This document shows positions 9,564 through 23,929 of a stretch of 32,000 bases of DNA, in pieces. The translations under genes and the position numbers were made by a program. This DNA comes from Candidatus Saccharimonadota bacterium (GTDB lineage: Bacteria > Pseudomonadota > Gammaproteobacteria > Enterobacterales > Enterobacteriaceae), in contig CP144768.1 of the NCBI GenBank assembly GCA_036689225.1, positions 127,311-159,310 on the forward strand, written 5' to 3'. Position 1 is the first letter of the stretch. The number at the start of each line of letters is the position of its first letter. The notes beneath the pieces were generated by a model. It was not told the origin of the DNA. It did no database searches and saw only the letters and a program-made list of their open reading frames with translations.

Positions 9564-9708
9564 ATTAAAATTTTTAATATTATTAAAATAATATAAAACT
9601 AATATATTATTATATAAATATATATAATATATGTTAATTATAATAATATTTTTAAATATTAAAAAATACATTATAAAATAATGTATTAAAAAATAAAAAT
9701 AATAACTA

Positions 9709-9746
<38 letters not shown>

Positions 9747-10170
9747 GATATATAAATTTTAAAAATTACTAAATTAATAATAAGAAAACAAAAAAAATAT
9801 AATTTTTTAAAATTTATTACTAATAAAAATACAAAAAATATAATAAAAAATATAAAAAATTAATTAAAAAATTAAATATAAATAAAATATTATTTTTTAA
9901 TAAATATATTAAAAAATAATCCTTTTAATATTATAAAAAAATTAATAAATAATATAAAAAATATTAAATATAATATTATATAAAAAATAAATATTCCAAT
10001 ATTATTAAAAATATTAATATCTAGAAAAAAAATATTTTACAATTAATTAATATTGTTATATTAATTTAAAAAAATAGTATAAATTATATAAATAAAAAAG
10101 ATAATATAAAAATTAGTAAAAATAAAAAATATAAAAAATATTAAAAATAAAAAAAAAATATATTAAAATT

Positions 10171-10539
10171 ATGTTAATAAAAATCAATAATATATTAATT
10201 TATGAAAAAATTACTACAAGATGAAATAAAAAACTTAAAATATTTAAAATAATAATAATAAATAATATAATATTAAAAGATAAAACAAAAATAAAATTAT
10301 TAAAACAAGTTTTACCATTAAATATAACATCATATATAATAAATATAAATAAATTTATAAAAATATATAAAAATATAAAATATTTAAATAAAAAAATATC
10401 ATTATTATTTATAAATTCTATAAATAGAATTAAAATCGTAAAAAAAAATATAAATATAAAATCTATTAATATAAATAATATATTTTTTAAAAAAAATACA
10501 AATAACTGATTCTATATAAATAAAATAAAAAAAATATAA
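10171..10539 (+). CDS. Hypothetical protein, 122 codons, visible only under translation table 4 (in-frame TGA at 10222 and 10507)
   Basis: I read it codon by codon as ATG at 10171, no TAA or TAG until 10537, and TAA at 10132 upstream. The product is MLIKINNILIYEKITTRWNKKLKIFKIIIINNIILKDKTKIKLLKQVLPLNITSYIINI...NNWFYINKIKKI. A stop-free run this long is very unlikely by chance in sequence this A-rich. I could not assign a family. Confidence 0.4.
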
Positions 10540-10841
10540 ATTCATTTTATTAATTATATAAAATATATATATAATTAAAAATTCGTAAAATATCAAATAA
10601 TAAAAAAATAGATTTAATAAAAATATTAAATAAAAAAAAAGATTTTATATTTATTTAAAAAAAAACAAAATATATAAATAATATTAATAAAAATAATATT
10701 AATATTTTTAATAAATTATTTAATAAATATAAAATCAATATTAAATCAATTCCAACTATATTATTTATTAATTTATTACACATTAATAAAATTAATATTA
10801 AATAATATAAAAATAGATATTAAAATAAATAATATTCTTAA

Positions 10842-11294
10842 AATAATATTATTAATATAAATAAATATAGAAACTTCTATTTTTCCATATATAACTTTAA
10901 CTTTAATAATATCTACTATAAAATAATCAATAAAATTAAGTATAACTTCATTAATTCTATTATCAGTTATAATAAAAAAATATTAACAATAATTATAAAA
11001 AATATAACTATAGTTTTTTAATATTTTTCTAATAAAATAATAAAAAATTAAAATTTATCTTATATTTCTTATATTTATATTATTATTTTACTATTACAAA
11101 AAATAAAAATTATTTTACTATTATTATTAATAAATACAACAATAAATACAAAATTAATTAAATATATATTAAATTTAATAATATTAATAATTATAGAAAA
11201 ATTAAATATAATAGAAAAAATAATAATAGTAGTAAAATATACAATAATAATTAATATGATAATAACAAAATTTTTAATACCATTTTTAATTTAA
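10842..11294 (+). pseudogene. Possible eroded gene remnant, a 150-codon frame interrupted only by TAA at 11019 and 11049
   Basis: Within this one frame (codon starts at multiples of 3), 10842-11018 is open for 59 codons and 11052-11291 for 80 codons. The second stretch reads NLSYISYIYIIILLLQKIKIILLLLLINTTINTKLIKYILNLIILIIIEKLNIIEKIIIVVKYTIIINMIITKFLIPFLI and is hydrophobic. Identity is unknown. Confidence 0.25.
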
Positions 11295-12345
11295 GATTTA
11301 TTATATTAAAATTTATAAAATTTAATTTATTATCTTTAAATATATTAAGAATTATATTAACAACTTTATATATATAATTATTACCAAAATATTACAATAT
11401 AATAAATAATAACAAAAATAAAAAAATAACAAAATATAACGAATTAAATTAAAAATATAAAGTATAAATATGAATAATAAAAAATTAATCACAATAATAT
11501 AATAAAAATATTTATAAAAAGTATATCTTTACAAAAAATCATAAAATTTTGAAAAAATACAAATATTAAGTTTTTATTATTATATAATAACAATAATAAA
11601 TAAATTATATAATAACAATATAAAAAAAACTATTAAAAAAAATTTAGAATTTTTTAATACTAAATCATATATAATTATATAAATATTAAATATAATAATT
11701 ACTATATAAGAAAAAAAAGCTAATAGAATTAAAATAAATAAAAATATAATTAATAATATTAAAATAAAATTAATAAATTTATTAATAGAAATAAAAAATT
11801 CTATATTTTGAGGTACAATAAGATTAATATTATTATTATTAAAAATTTAATTTAAGTATATTAGAAAATATAATAAATTCTCTATTATTTTTTATATTTT
11901 TTAATATAAAAAAATTATTAATATTATATTATGATATATATCATAGATATAAAAAAAGATTTAAAAAATAATTAAAAATATAAATAATAATATTTTACAA
12001 AAAATTACTGAAAGTTCATATATATTAAAATTATTTATAATAAATGTTTTAATAAATAAATGAACTAAAATAAATATACCTTTAATAATCAATTATTACC
12101 AAATATAATATTATTAATAATAATATTAATATATATACGATTATTAAAAAAAAATAAATCCTTTAATATTAATAATAATTATTTTTATATTTATAATAAA
12201 TAAATATTTTAATATAATTTCAAATTAAAATAATATAAATAATAAATTAATTATATTTTTAATATATATATATATATTAAAAGTATAATTTTTTTTTTTT
12301 TTACAAATAAAAATCAATTTTCAATAATATTAATTATAAAATTTA

Positions 12346-17935: not shown

Positions 17936-19231
<1,296 letters not shown>

Positions 19232-19435
19232 ATAATATACTCCATATAATAATTATATATATTTAATAATATTATTAAATATATTATTATAATAAATATT
19301 ATTTCAAAATATTATATCATATAATAATAAAATATTATAATTAACAAATAAACAAATATATATTACATAAAATAATTAAAATATATAAAATATAATATAT
19401 TATTTTATTATTTATAATATATAAATATTATAATA

Positions 19436-21421
19436 TTATTTATATATTTTTCTATTAAATTTATCATTTATACCAGATTTTCTATAAAAATAAGTATTTA
19501 TTTTATCTCTTCATTCACATGAATGAAGATATTGTTTTCTTAATCTTTTTTTGACATTATAAAATATATTTTTTTTTATATAAAATTTTAATTTATTTCA
19601 TAATTTAATTCATTTATAAACATTTTTTACACCTTCAAAATGAGTATTATATATATATTGAATTATAGAAATTTTATATTTTTTAATTATATATTTATAA
19701 GATAAATTATGAAAAAATAATAATAATTTCTTAGGACATCTATTTATATCACTAAATTTTTTAATATTTTCATCAAAATATTGTTTTATAAAATTAGAAC
19801 CATTAAAAGTTCTATTATATCCTAAACTATATCTATTAGAATAATGATATATACCTGAATCTAAATATTCATATCCATCTATATTTGGAACATAATTATT
19901 TTTTGGATCAACCATTCCATTTAAACCTAATGGAGAAGTATAATTTTCATAATTTTGTCAACTATTATACATTATTTTTCTAATTATATTTATAACTTTT
20001 TTATTTTTATTTATAGATAATATTATTCATTCTTTTAATAAATTATTTAAATTTTTATTTAAATTTCATAATATATTGCCATAACAAAATATATTAGATT
20101 GAGATAAATAATGTCCAGTTCAATTATAATTATTTCCTATATTAGATATAACAGAAACACCAAAATATTTACATTTTTTATGTAATTTTCCTGAAATTAA
20201 TTTTTTAATAGTACATTTTCTATTTTTATAATAATAAGTATTAAAATTAAATATATTTTTTCATTGCATAGGTAATCAACATAAATCTATTTGTTGTCCA
20301 GTAAATTCTTGATTAATTTGTAATTCTAATATTTGAGAAGTTTTATCCATAGAACCTAATAAAGGAGAAACAGGTTCTCTAATTTGAAAACCTATTGGAT
20401 CATTAATTTGTAATATAACATTATTTGGAAATAAACCATTTAATTTATTAAAATACTTATAATTATTTAATATTTTATCATTATTTTTATTTCTTCAATT
20501 TTGTTTTTTATATATATCACATTTTCATACTAAAATACCATTAAAATAATTTAAATTTTTAGCTATATATTTACAACCATCTATATGATTTCTATTATAA
20601 TATAAAGGTCCTTTATTATTTTTACAATCAGTCTTTACAAAAAAACCTCCAAAATTTGGCATATATGAATATATTTCTTCTATTTTTTTTTCTCATCAAT
20701 ATATAACATTATTATCTAATGGATCAAATGTATCTAATTTTCCTAATATTATAGGACTTTTATAATTAATAGATAAAAACATTTTTATATTATATTTATT
20801 TAATATATTATATATTTCATAAATTTGAATTAATCAATTTTTAGTAATTAAAAAAGTAGAAAATATATTAACATTAATATTATTTATACATATTGCATTT
20901 ATTCTAATACTACATAATAATCTACAATAATATCTTATTCTATAAAAATCAAAATTAATATTATTTTTTAAAAAAAAAATAGAATTACCAGAATATCCTT
21001 TTTCTATTGAACCATCTAAATTATCTAAATGTTGTACAATTCTTAATTTAACTAATGGTTTTTCATGTATAAATATATTATTTATATCAAAATTATTTAA
21101 TTGAATATTATTAAATAAATGATATAAAGAATATAAAAATCCTTTTATATTCTTAGAAAAAATAAAAATTTTATTTTTAATATTTTTTATTAAATATTCT
21201 TCATCATCAAAATTTTTATTATTAAGAAATATTAAACTTGATATTTTAATTTTATTTGTAAATACTACATAATTTTTATCTATAAAATATAATATCTCCT
21301 CTTTTAAAAAAAAATATTTTTTTTTTATATATATATATTTAAATATTTTTTTATATTTTTTTTTATTTAAAAAATTATCAATATTAACTAATCAACATTT
21401 CGAAAAATTTTCTTTTATCAT
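19436..21421 (-). CDS. aguA: Alpha-glucuronidase, glycoside hydrolase family 67 (661 aa), containing 15 in-frame TGA(Trp) codons
   Basis: Joined through TGA, the frame is open from the ATG at 21421-21419 to TAA at 19436. Recognisable GH67 blocks are [142 protein letters not shown]...[12 protein letters not shown] and [22 protein letters not shown]. No N-terminal signal peptide is seen. Confidence 0.85.
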
Positions 21422-21477
21422 TTTATTAAAATATTATTATTAATAATACATTTTTTAATTATATATTATAATAAAAT

Positions 21478-22287
21478 ATGGAAAAAAAAAAAATAAATAA
21501 AAATATTATTCCAAATATTAGAGGAATAAATATATATAATATATACCAAAATTTTTCTTTTATTAAAAAAATAAAGAAATATATAAAATATATAAATAAT
21601 ATTAAAATACTAATAAAATATAATAAAATAATAAATATAAAAAAATTTATAAATATAATAAAAATATGTAATAAAAAAAATATTAATTTAACTATAAATA
21701 TTAAATTATATAATTTTAAAAAAAAAAATAAAATTAAATATATAAAATATATAAAATATATTATTAATAATTTAAATATAAAAAAAATATTTATAAGTAT
21801 AAATTTACAATGTAAAAATATAAACGAATGATATCTCTTTTACAAAGATTTTATTTATATTTATAATTTAAAAAAAATAAATAATATAATTTTTATAAAT
21901 TATCCAAATAATTTTAAATATCCTAATTATTTAATTTTATATAAAATTAAAAAAATATTTAATATTTTCAAAAAAAATAATATTTTTTTATTAATATCTA
22001 TATATAATAAAATATATAGAAAAATAAAAAATTTAATACAATTTTTAAATTGTATAATAAATAAAAATATACCAATAGTTTTAAGTGAAATAAATTATAT
22101 TAATAATATAAAATTTTTATTAAATTTCTGTCAAAAAAAAAATATAAATTGATGAATAACACCTAAAAAATATAAAAATATTAATAAAAAAATAAATATA
22201 TCAAATATATCATCTATAATTTTTTGTAAAAATGGAATAAGACAAACATCAATAAAAAATCCTTACCCATATAATTATTATGGATAA
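21478..22287 (+). CDS. Divergent 269-aa protein, a putative clan GH-A (beta/alpha)8 glycoside hydrolase that is GH10 xylanase-like
   Basis: The frame is open under table 4, with TGA at 21829, 22150 and 22153. Its motif order resembles GH10. IRGINIYN sits near the N-terminus, CKNINEW parallels WDVxNE (acid/base), IFINYPNN parallels LFYNDYN, IPIVLSEINY parallels hhITELDh (nucleophile), and NINWWIT parallels the beta-8 TFWG. It is transcribed divergently from the GH67 gene. It is short for the family, and I could not place the conserved GxQxH His. Confidence 0.4.
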
Positions 22288-22295
22288 GGTTTTTT
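22254..22295. terminator. Symmetrical bidirectional intrinsic terminator between two convergent enzyme genes
   Basis: The structure is aaaaaat-CCTTACCCATA-taattat-TATGGATAAGG-tttttt. The stem is 11 bp with one mismatch and is unusually G+C-rich for this sequence. It is flanked by A6 upstream and T6 downstream, so it reads as hairpin plus U-tract on both strands. It overlaps the last codons of the plus-strand gene and lies 28 nt beyond the polygalacturonase stop. Confidence 0.65.
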
Positions 22296-22322
22296 ATAAT
22301 ATTACTCACTTTATTTAATCTT

Positions 22323-23570
22323 TTAGTTTAATTTTCTTGTAGGACAAATATTTCCATTAGCATTTTCATTTAAAATACCTTTAGCTGTAACATTAACCAT
22401 TTTTATTACAGAACCTTTTTTAATATTTACATTTGAAAATATAACTTCAATATTATTTCCTTTTATACCATTAAAAATAAAATTACCAGGTGTTAATACT
22501 TTTACTGAATCAAAATTTATATTTTTAAATTTAGGTATTTTATTTCCTTTAGCATTTTTATTATAAAACATATCTAAATATATAGGATTTTTAACATCTT
22601 TTATACATATATTTTTATATGTAATAAAACTTACTAAACCACCTCTAGAAATATCACTTTTAATACGTAAACCACTAGTTGTTCCATCCATAGATAAACC
22701 ATCTACTAAAATATCATTAACATTACCTAATGTTTCACTACCTATTGACATTCCATGACCTTTACCAAAATTATTATTTACAATAGATATATGAGATGTA
22801 GGACCATGAGAAGCTTTTATAGCTATATTATCATCTCCTGTACTAATATATGAATGTGCTATAGTAATATTACTTGATGATCCTGGATCTATACCATCAG
22901 TATTACGAGCATCAGCAGGAGTATTTATATTAACTCCTCAAACTGTAAGTCCATCCAAATTATTTGTAGAAACATGAAAATTAGGTGAATTTTTTATAGA
23001 TATTTTATAAAAAGTAAAATTTTTTGAATTCTTTATTACAATAAGTCTAGGTACATTTTGTGACTGATTTTTTTTTTGTGCTTCACTAGCTAAATTTCAC
23101 CATGTTTTTGTACTTCCTTTCATAACAGAATTACCTTGACCATCAATAATTCCTTCTCCATATATACCACTATTTATAGAATTATTAACTGTTATAAAAG
23201 GAATACATGATTTACCTATATTATCTAATTTACCACATTTGTTACCTCCATTATCATATAATAATGGATCAGGTATTGCAGATAATATAGTACCCTTATC
23301 TATTAATATTCCTCCATTAGAAGGTATATTTAATGGACCTGAATAAAAATGAAAATTTTTATTATCAGTAGATTTTAATTCTACTACCTTATTTTGTTTA
23401 GCACAATTATTTATTGCTTTTTGAATTACACTAGTATTATTTTTATTATTAGCTTTTAATACAATACAACTTGAAGGATTTACAGGTTCTTTAATATTAC
23501 GTGTATCTCCAGCTATAGCTGTATTTATAGCTAAAATACTTATTAAAATTAAATATATACTATTTTTCAT
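22323..23570 (-). CDS. pehA: Endo-polygalacturonase, glycoside hydrolase family 28 (415 aa), with an N-terminal Sec signal peptide
   Basis: Fragments 22323-22751 and 23097-23570 are in one frame. I translated the gap as ...TWWNLASEAQKK...PRLIVIKNSKNFTFYKISIKNSPNFHVST...ARNTDGIDPGSSSNITIAHSYISTGDDNIAIKA...NNNFGKGHGMSIGSE...GLRIKSD. All four GH28 signature motifs (NTD, DD, GHG, RIK) are intact, and the protein is colinear with Pectobacterium PehA. The signal peptide is MKNSIYLILISILAINTAIA/GD. An AGGA Shine-Dalgarno lies 5 nt upstream of the ATG. Confidence 0.92.
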
Positions 23571-23849
23571 ATATATCCTATATAAATTTATTTAATAAAG
23601 TAAGTAATAATCATAAATATTTTAATATTTAGATTATATTATTATAACATAAAAAAATATTATAAAATATTTTTAAAAAAAAAATAAATTTAATATAAAA
23701 AATTATATTAAATAACAAAATATATATTATAAAAATTTTAATAAATAAATTATATTAAAATAGAAAATAAAATTAATAATTATAAAATTTTTTAATATAA
23801 ATATATAAATTTATTTTTTTATATAAATATATGATATAATAAATAAATT

Positions 23850-23921
<72 letters not shown>

Positions 23922-23929
23922 TTTATAAA

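Follow-up and report, generated by a model that had tools for sequence, protein, structure and literature searches.

An open reading frame between the GH67 and GH28 genes of a Stammera genome is orthologous by position to the plasmid GH5_8 endo-beta-mannanase and encodes an eroded protein with a predicted (beta/alpha)8 barrel

What is the protein encoded between the genes for a GH67 alpha-glucuronidase and a GH28 polygalacturonase in the chromosome of a tortoise-beetle Stammera symbiont, and why is its gene still there? The question arises from a stretch of 32,000 nucleotides (contig CP144768.1, positions 127,311 to 159,310 of the forward strand), the whole of which is called the window in this text. 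A first-pass annotation of this DNA, made from the letters and their translations, had taken the open reading frame (ORF) between the two enzymes for a diverged, miniaturised GH10-like hydrolase or, if inactive, for a decaying partner of the alpha-glucuronidase gene aguA. The analysis described here assigns the ORF to another glycoside hydrolase family, GH5, and its position and nature are as follows:

21478..22287, plus strand: ORF of 269 amino acids (aa) under table 4, orthologous by position to the GH5_8 endo-beta-mannanase of Stammera plasmids but eroded, with a predicted (beta/alpha)8 barrel (translation, AlphaFold2 model, Foldseek, profile matches, hhalign and synteny)

No published description of the ORF was found in the literature searched, and the preprint on Baktfold, in which one of the examples is a Stammera genome, is silent on the protein. 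The PLSDB entries for the plasmids are unannotated, and neither an exact-sequence look-up of the window protein nor the cluster names gave a name for it.

The frame consists of 269 codons, three of them in-frame TGA read as Trp, and ends at a TAA stop; it is uninterrupted only with genetic code 4, under which it had been noted as intact at first reading. This code fits the genome, all Trp codons being TGA in 16 of 17 surveyed genes. The composition of the protein is extreme, with Lys, Ile and Asn making up 63% of the residues (the bias had been pointed out before) and neither His nor Ala present at all. The GC content of the ORF (7.8%) is the lowest among the window genes surveyed, the window as a whole having about 13%, and the degenerate orthologue genes described below range from 5.9 to 9.2%. 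The ORF is a real, conserved gene with an open frame far above chance: the probability of 269 open codons calculated from composition is 1e-15, the longest open run in 2000 shuffles was 112 codons, and the other five frames across the same DNA contain 9-44 stops each. A homopolymer of twelve A at 21481-21492 forms codons 2-5 and further runs of nine or ten A occur internally, all of them prone to slippage, and the frame is still intact. At 92% AT a promoter scan was uninformative, with 20 sites against 21 expected. Ordinary similarity searches had been predicted to return nothing, and this was the case: scans of the ORF protein against Pfam and NCBIfam gave zero matches at E<=10, and a profile search of the sequences in the Protein Data Bank (PDB) gave chance-level matches only (ribosomal protein S3 and TrpA, E of about 0.2).

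The family was recognised from structure and profiles. An AlphaFold2 (AF2) model built from an alignment of 11 orthologues (pLDDT 77, pTM 0.77) contains eight alternating strand/helix units followed by a C-terminal strand, and on this model the ORF protein is predicted to fold into a compact barrel of the (beta/alpha)8 type found in clan GH-A, in agreement with the clan proposed in the first-pass annotation. The best Foldseek matches in the PDB were the GH5 beta-mannanases 1BQC, 3MAN and 2MAN of Thermobifida fusca (E 6e-7 to 1e-5, TM 0.57-0.59), followed by the Streptomyces structures 4FK9 and 4Y7E and then by GH5 cellulases; other TIM barrels also occur in the top 50, and no GH10 enzyme or xylanase is found among those 50 by entry description. 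A search of 1.84 billion representative proteins with a hidden Markov model (HMM) of the 11 orthologues gave 18 matches. Those beyond the orthologues were two proteins here called P0012 (E 3e-17) and P0013 (4e-10), together with 12 more distant ones (3e-6 to 7e-4). Ten of the HMM matches were scanned with Pfam and nine carry PF00150 (GH5), the exception being P0013, which is itself a degenerate orthologue. The GH10 model PF00331 matched none of these ten, nor the ORF protein or its orthologues at E<=10. Moreover, hhalign aligned the ORF family with a GH5_8 set over 249 columns (probability 97.6%, E 2.9e-12), and BLASTP with compositional adjustment joined the ORF protein directly to P0012 at E 0.001.

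The ORF family is therefore GH5, of the subfamily-8-type endo-beta-1,4-mannanase lineage, and not GH10: PF00150 in nine of ten scanned matches, GH5 mannanases as the top structures and a syntenic GH5 orthologue all speak against the family first proposed. GH10 xylanases (PF00331) do share the clan GH-A barrel and the catalytic Glu on beta-4 and beta-7, and would be plausible partners of GH67 in xylan degradation; the ORF however has no sequence, profile or top-50 structure match to them, and its motifs fit GH5_8. With the bacterial GH5_8-type mannanases (T. fusca Man5A, 1BQC/2MAN/3MAN; Bacillus 1WKY, 2WHJ and 3JUG; Streptomyces 4FK9 and 3WSU) the ORF protein has in common the barrel, at the TM values and best E value given above, and a matching order of the beta-1, beta-4, beta-7 and beta-8 motifs and the C-terminal strand. 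It differs from them in its low identity (10-13%) and in having no signal peptide, N-terminal hairpin or carbohydrate-binding modules and few of the -1 subsite residues, and is probably inactive.

The most informative relative is P0012, an AT-biased GH5 protein of 299 aa (19% GC) which matches PF00150 at 2e-30 and has the full set of eight GH5 active-site residues as read from its sequence. It matches the solved mannanases 1WKY, 3JUG, 2WHJ and 1BQC with E values of 6e-74 to 1.5e-54 and shares 45-48% identity with Bacillales proteins (Paenibacillus, Bacillus) named 'mannan endo-1,4-beta-mannosidase'. A GH5 annotated in the coffee berry borer (Hypothenemus hampei) genome is just as similar to P0012 (46%), a hint that the same bacterial mannanase clade entered beetle digestion by two routes. 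The gene for P0012 lies on the plasmids CP144820.1 (pStChp1, a name derived from Chelobasis perplexa) and CP144823.1 of hispine-beetle Stammera, in the order GH67(-), GH5(+), GH28(-). Ten homologues of the ORF, with 43-60% identity, were found on contigs of 2.3-6.9 kb (eight of the ten on contigs of 5.5-6.9 kb), and the contigs for which a GenBank record was identified proved to be Stammera plasmids encoding RepA, GH67, the ORF and GH28. The slot and orientation GH67(-)/ORF(+)/GH28(-) are the same in 13 loci, the intact GH5 of CP144820.1 and CP144823.1 included, and GH28 adjoins the ORF orthologue in all plasmids examined. On pStChi1 (CP144826.1) the gene for P0013 (244 aa, no Pfam match) adjoins GH28 and is convergent with it, in the same position as the ORF. 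P0013 and P0012 have in common the unusual N-terminus 'M.IINN.F...NNKFIIRGI', without a signal peptide, and P0013 is an intermediate form between the intact and the strongly eroded GH5.

The ORF and the Stammera GH5 endomannanase gene are thus positional orthologues. Beyond the slot, orientation and convergent hairpin terminator, the window ORF and P0012 both lack a signal peptide, both contain 'IIRGIN' at beta-1 and 'NGI[RK]QTSI' near the C-terminus, and are 29% identical over 294 residues. The window ORF differs from P0012 in its length (269 vs 299 aa), GC content (7.8 vs 19%) and absence of a Pfam match, in keeping three of the eight active-site residues, in the replacement of the acid/base Glu by Leu and in the trimming of the catalytic-face loops; the compressed loops had been seen in the first reading and the comparison with the intact orthologue bears this out. 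Across strains, the identity of the ORF to the window copy drops in roughly the same order as that of GH28, as expected of vertical co-inheritance. The level is quite different: identity to the closest orthologues is 59-61% for the ORF vs 86-88% for GH28, and the ORF product is the fastest-diverging protein among the plasmid genes.

How much of the catalytic machinery is left? Eight residues are usually conserved in the GH5 active site, namely Arg, His, Asn, Glu, His, Tyr, Glu and Trp. Their positions were placed by alignment, MAFFT, hhalign and composition-adjusted BLASTP agreeing on the catalytic ones, and were tabulated over 12 degenerate orthologues from 11 distinct host strains belonging to four beetle tribes. 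The elements concerned are:

21517..21531, plus strand: 'IRGIN', codons 14-18, beta-1 motif as in GH5_8 'MRGIN', with R15 and G16 invariant in 12 of 12 degenerate orthologues (alignments)
21802..21807, plus strand: N109-L110, C-terminal end of predicted beta-4 (AF2 strand 104-110), equivalent to the GH5 'N-E' acid/base pair, Asn kept and Glu replaced by Leu (AF2, alignments)
21826..21831, plus strand: E117-W118 (GAA TGA), from 'NEW', aligned to the non-catalytic 'T-W' which opens helix alpha-4 of true GH5_8 (MAFFT, hhalign, BLASTP)
22087..22089, plus strand: E204 in 'VLSEINY', position of the GH5 nucleophile of 'GEFG', end of beta-7 (hhalign, BLASTP; AF2 strand 200-203)
22231..22257, plus strand: 'NGIRQTSIK', codons 252-260, C-terminal strand, invariant in 11 orthologues save one Q-to-H (alignments)

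At the eight GH5 sites the window protein has K43, K76, N109, L110, S174, Y176, E204 and T228, so that N109, Y176 and E204 are kept while Arg has become K43, the two His K76 and S174, the acid/base Glu L110 and Trp T228. The acid/base position is occupied by L, Y, I, F or N in the degenerate orthologues and by Glu in none of the 12. The nucleophile position is Glu in 7/12, K or I in 4/12 and Asp in one. The five short motifs on which the first-pass annotation relied are all present (at residues 15, 112, 138, 198 and 222), and two of its readings agree with the alignments, 'RGIN' being the GH-A beta-1 motif and the Glu of 'SEIN' (E204) the nucleophile position. The Glu of 'NEW' had been taken for the acid/base; E117 aligns instead to the non-catalytic 'T-W', the real position being that of L110. 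W118 is invariant and matches the Trp of '..DTW' in GH5_8, both having the register W-x3-Y-K, and helix alpha-4 of the AF2 model starts at residue 115. Of the two Glu expected at the ends of strands 4 and 7, that of beta-4 is absent; that of beta-7 is present in the window protein, where E204 follows predicted strand 200-203, and in only part of the orthologues. The same annotation had staked an active hydrolase on the conservation of both proposed Glu among orthologues, and neither is conserved: E117 is Glu in five of the 12 and K, S or D in the other seven, and E204 varies as given above.

Compared with P0012, the deletions affect the catalytic-face loops after beta-2, beta-4 and beta-7 and the N-terminal hairpin, and the segment after beta-8 is now rich in Lys and Asn and unstructured in the AF2 model. 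Conservation among the degenerate orthologues is 0.72 in strands, 0.66 in stability-face loops and 0.56 in catalytic-face loops, which is the signature of a maintained fold with a drifting active site. The C-terminal 'NGIRQTSIK' has the counterparts 'NGIKQTSI' in the intact Stammera GH5 and 'NGIKATSKK' in free-living GH5; this strand and the beta-1 'IRG' are the best-conserved elements and are both inherited from GH5_8.

The orthologues were expected not to be pseudogenised, and the frame is open in 12 of 12 degenerate forms (244-277 codons), all indels being in frame. Each of these genes contains 40-48 nonsense-prone sites and none of the 12 has acquired a stop. Synonymous divergence (dS) is 0.2-0.6 between pairs, the window being about 0.5 away from its closest relatives, and the neutral expectation is about 20 stops on the path from the window to its nearest relative alone. 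The ratio of nonsynonymous to synonymous divergence (dN/dS, omega), calculated according to Nei and Gojobori for the three closest plasmid pairs, was as follows:

ORF: omega 0.42-0.46 (bootstrap 95% confidence interval 0.24-0.79; <=0.4% of replicates reach 1)
GH28: omega 0.11-0.19
GH67: omega 0.15-0.21
RepA: omega 0.17-0.24

The ORF is thus under purifying selection which is relaxed, or weak, relative to its neighbours, its omega being 2-4 times that of the neighbouring genes. The ratio of the dN of the ORF to that of GH28 is about 3.7 for pairs which include the window copy, integrated in the chromosome, and about 4.1-4.2 for plasmid-plasmid pairs; since the ratio is equal in both types of pair, integration has not visibly altered the selection regime.

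These observations are best explained if the ORF is an eroded, probably non-catalytic GH5_8 orthologue, vertically inherited and kept under relaxed purifying selection, most likely for a residual non-catalytic role, a reading that we consider highly probable. The ancestral digestive plasmid of Stammera would have carried a GH5_8 endo-beta-1,4-mannanase between GH67 and GH28. In the symbionts of Chelobasis (hispine beetles) the gene is still a normal GH5 with complete catalytic residues. In those of tortoise beetles, including that of Terpsis quadrimaculata with its chromosomal cargo, the predicted barrel core, 'RGIN' and 'NGIRQTSIK' are kept and the catalytic-face loops are shortened. The acid/base Glu has there given way to a hydrophobic or aromatic residue (L110 here), both His, the Arg and the beta-8 Trp are lost, and the nucleophile Glu persists in some lineages only. 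With these residues the function of a retaining mannanase would be gone from the eroded forms. Mannan hydrolysis is not expected of the protein because the acid/base residue and the -1 subsite are lost, and we infer from sequence that the ORF-encoded endo-beta-1,4-mannanase activity has disappeared. A residual non-catalytic role is suggested by the protection of the frame and fold and by the fact that the gene outlived integration while repA was lost; the protein is most likely made, and selection on the frame and on the fold-determining residues is weaker than in the adjacent enzymes.

For the nature of this role the guess would be a structural or carbohydrate-binding one, by analogy with pseudoenzymes derived from glycosidases, such as the GH18 chi-lectins (YKL-40), the xylanase inhibitor XIP-I, narbonin and concanavalin B. 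In these proteins, as in the ORF product, a TIM-barrel glycosidase scaffold with a substituted catalytic acid may be kept under selection in a non-hydrolytic role. These known pseudoenzymes have demonstrated ligand-binding or inhibitor functions, whereas the ORF protein is known from its sequence and model and its substrate cleft looks eroded. On the side of the host, gut extract of Chelymorpha alternans depolymerised glucomannan less effectively than extract of the hispine Chelobasis (bioRxiv 10.1101/2023.12.12.571295). The plasmid of the C. alternans symbiont (CP043986.1) carries a degenerate form, P0004, and the weaker glucomannan breakdown is consistent with an inactive relic.

Several points weigh against the explanation preferred here. 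Confidence in the AF2 model is medium, with a pLDDT below 50 at residues 231-246. Even with the threshold at E<=10, Pfam recognises GH5 in none of the 12 degenerate members, although five of five intact GH5 proteins in the same alignment do match; the homology rests on profile, structure and synteny for this reason. The dN/dS values, being of the Nei-Gojobori (NG86) type, are biased by the extreme AT pressure, and their informative part is the comparison between genes within the same replicons. The role proposed for the protein, structural or carbohydrate-binding, is a default guess by analogy, and in the Mesomphaliini clade, where E117 is found in P0001-P0004, the acid/base might conceivably have been relocated.

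The last point leads to the possibility that the ORF encodes an active, miniaturised GH-A hydrolase, either a GH10-like xylanase acting with aguA or a GH5 mannanase which uses E204 together with a relocated acid/base such as E117. The barrel is retained in the AF2 model, the nucleophile-equivalent E204 is present in the window strain, E117 is situated on the catalytic side, close to where helix alpha-4 begins, and all four closest relatives share this Glu, and the gene is under purifying selection. We nevertheless regard this as very unlikely, as the GH10 signal is absent from the Pfam, profile and structure comparisons and the canonical acid/base is Leu in a protein with no His at all, from whose -1 subsite the Arg, both His and the beta-8 Trp have gone. 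Moreover E117 is K, S or D in more than half of the orthologues, the nucleophile is replaced in five of the 12, the loops of the substrate cleft are shortened, and a host with a degenerate orthologue breaks down glucomannan more poorly. At the other extreme the ORF might be a functionless pseudogene in slow decay, its open frame being a lag before disruption. The lowest GC contents and the fastest protein divergence of all plasmid genes, the lost catalytic residues and the elevated omega would all suit such a pseudogene, and the earlier fallback of an inactive, decaying partner of aguA was indeed closer to the truth than the active reading. The gene is however not in free fall. All 12 frames are open in spite of their many nonsense-prone sites and the synonymous divergence between pairs, omega is significantly below 1, the IRG and NGIRQTSIK motifs persist, and after integration the 268-kb genome retained this gene but discarded repA, so that plain decay appears unlikely.

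A protein for plasmid maintenance, that is a second Rep, a partition or a copy-number factor, would account for the presence of the ORF next to GH28 on every GH28 plasmid examined, on plasmids of 5-7 kb with RepA, and for its lack of a family annotation. Its homology and fold are those of GH5 however, a RepA_C protein is already encoded on the plasmids, nucleotide- or DNA-binding motifs are absent from the ORF, and the gene is retained in the plasmid-free Terpsis chromosome from which RepA has gone; such a function is extremely improbable, and a second replication protein was rejected on fold, homology and retention after integration. A bolder version of the preferred reading, namely that the eroded GH5_8 orthologue is a GH-derived pseudoenzyme selected across several tortoise-beetle tribes (tens of millions of years according to the dating in the preprint cited above) for a new non-catalytic role in the symbiosis, with GH5 ancestral to the plasmid, can be proposed only tentatively. 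The protein might bind polysaccharides, assist GH28 in its function or release, or interact with the host. If this were true, a symbiont of 0.25 Mb would keep, on its minimal digestive plasmid, a non-catalytic glycoside hydrolase derivative beside the essential polygalacturonase gene.

The finding has consequences for the history of the plasmid. GH5 has been described as 'acquired secondarily' in Stammera, with a root posterior of 0.00015, and the published view is that it is absent from tortoise-beetle Stammera and was gained late (bioRxiv 10.1101/2023.12.12.571295). The cryptic GH5 orthologue implies the opposite polarity, in which the ancestral GH67/GH28 plasmid had GH5 and later suffered its erosion. 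The data indicate that the plasmid from which those of Chelobasis and tortoise-beetle symbionts descend already had GH5 and that the gene is eroded, not absent, in the tortoise-beetle lineages, and the published absence and late gain are in need of revision. Such an erosion fits the shift of the tortoise beetles away from mannan-rich monocots. Moreover, relics of enzymes escape sequence-only annotation in extremely AT-biased genomes. The forms can also be ranked by their decay, with the intact gene of the Chelobasis symbiont, the intermediate one of pStChi1 and the strongly eroded ones, and this natural series could be used to study the decay of a TIM barrel with its fold under selection, in a genome where nearly all retained genes are expected to matter. 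The ORF itself is a new, probably inactive, member of the known GH5 family, and no new mechanism is demonstrated by it.

The neighbourhood of the ORF in the window is made up of the following features, the two flanking enzymes named in the first-pass annotation being confirmed by Pfam:

19436..21421, minus strand: GH67 alpha-glucuronidase (aguA), divergent neighbour of the ORF (Pfam PF07488 at 7e-106, PF07477 at 3.8e-65)
22323..23570, minus strand: GH28 polygalacturonase whose N-terminal segment resembles a signal peptide, adjoining the ORF convergently (Pfam PF00295 at 4.5e-58)
19232..23848, no strand: former plasmid cargo of GH67, GH5 relic and GH28, now chromosomal between eno and tRNA-Met, without repA (tblastn with RepA, tRNA position, published integration)
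17936-19231, minus strand: eno, left flank of the inserted cargo
23849-23922, plus strand: tRNA-Met, right flank of the inserted cargo
22261..22289, no strand: GC-rich hairpin with an 11-bp stem, flanked by an A-run and a T-run and overlapping the last nine ORF codons (terminator scan, called on the minus strand, that is as the GH28 terminator)

The Stammera capleta strain of Terpsis quadrimaculata has a genome of 268,407 bp and 0 plasmids (Table S2, bioRxiv 10.1101/2023.12.12.571295), and according to the same authors its plasmid was integrated into the chromosome. The cargo block of the window, without repA, agrees with this published loss of the plasmid through integration; a tblastn search of the window with three RepA proteins gave chance matches only. 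The first reading had placed a terminator hairpin at the end of the ORF. A hairpin does exist there, at 22261-22289, though called on the minus strand as stated above. An equivalent A-run/hairpin/T-run between the ORF and the convergent GH28 occurs in 13 of 13 loci examined (the window and L001, L002, L003, L005, L008, L009, L011-L014, L018 and L020), its sequence varying among strains. Because it is found between the convergent genes in all of them, the hairpin is probably a bidirectional intrinsic terminator common to the ORF and GH28. Unlike GH28, neither GH67 nor the intact or eroded GH5 has an obvious signal peptide.

Some Stammera plasmids have an extra membrane protein adjoining GH67, possibly an importer of sugar acids, and the window has none. 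On the Ischnocodia plasmids this is a hydrophobic ORF of 389 aa without a Pfam match (L003 813-1982 and L004 1126-2295), on the Cistudinella plasmid an MFS transporter (L002 2918-4126) and on pStChi1 a permease of the xanthine/uracil family (L011 3696-4967); tblastn of the MFS transporter and the 389-aa ORF against the window gave chance matches only. Elsewhere in the window, positions 9600-12300 (about 2.7 kb, GC 5-7%) contain no table-4 frame of more than 134 codons; amid the dense packing of the rest of the genome, this part appears to be a gene desert or a completely eroded gene. The GC content of GH28 (24%) far exceeds that of every other surveyed gene, and GH28 is the sole one among them with a TGG Trp codon (n=1).

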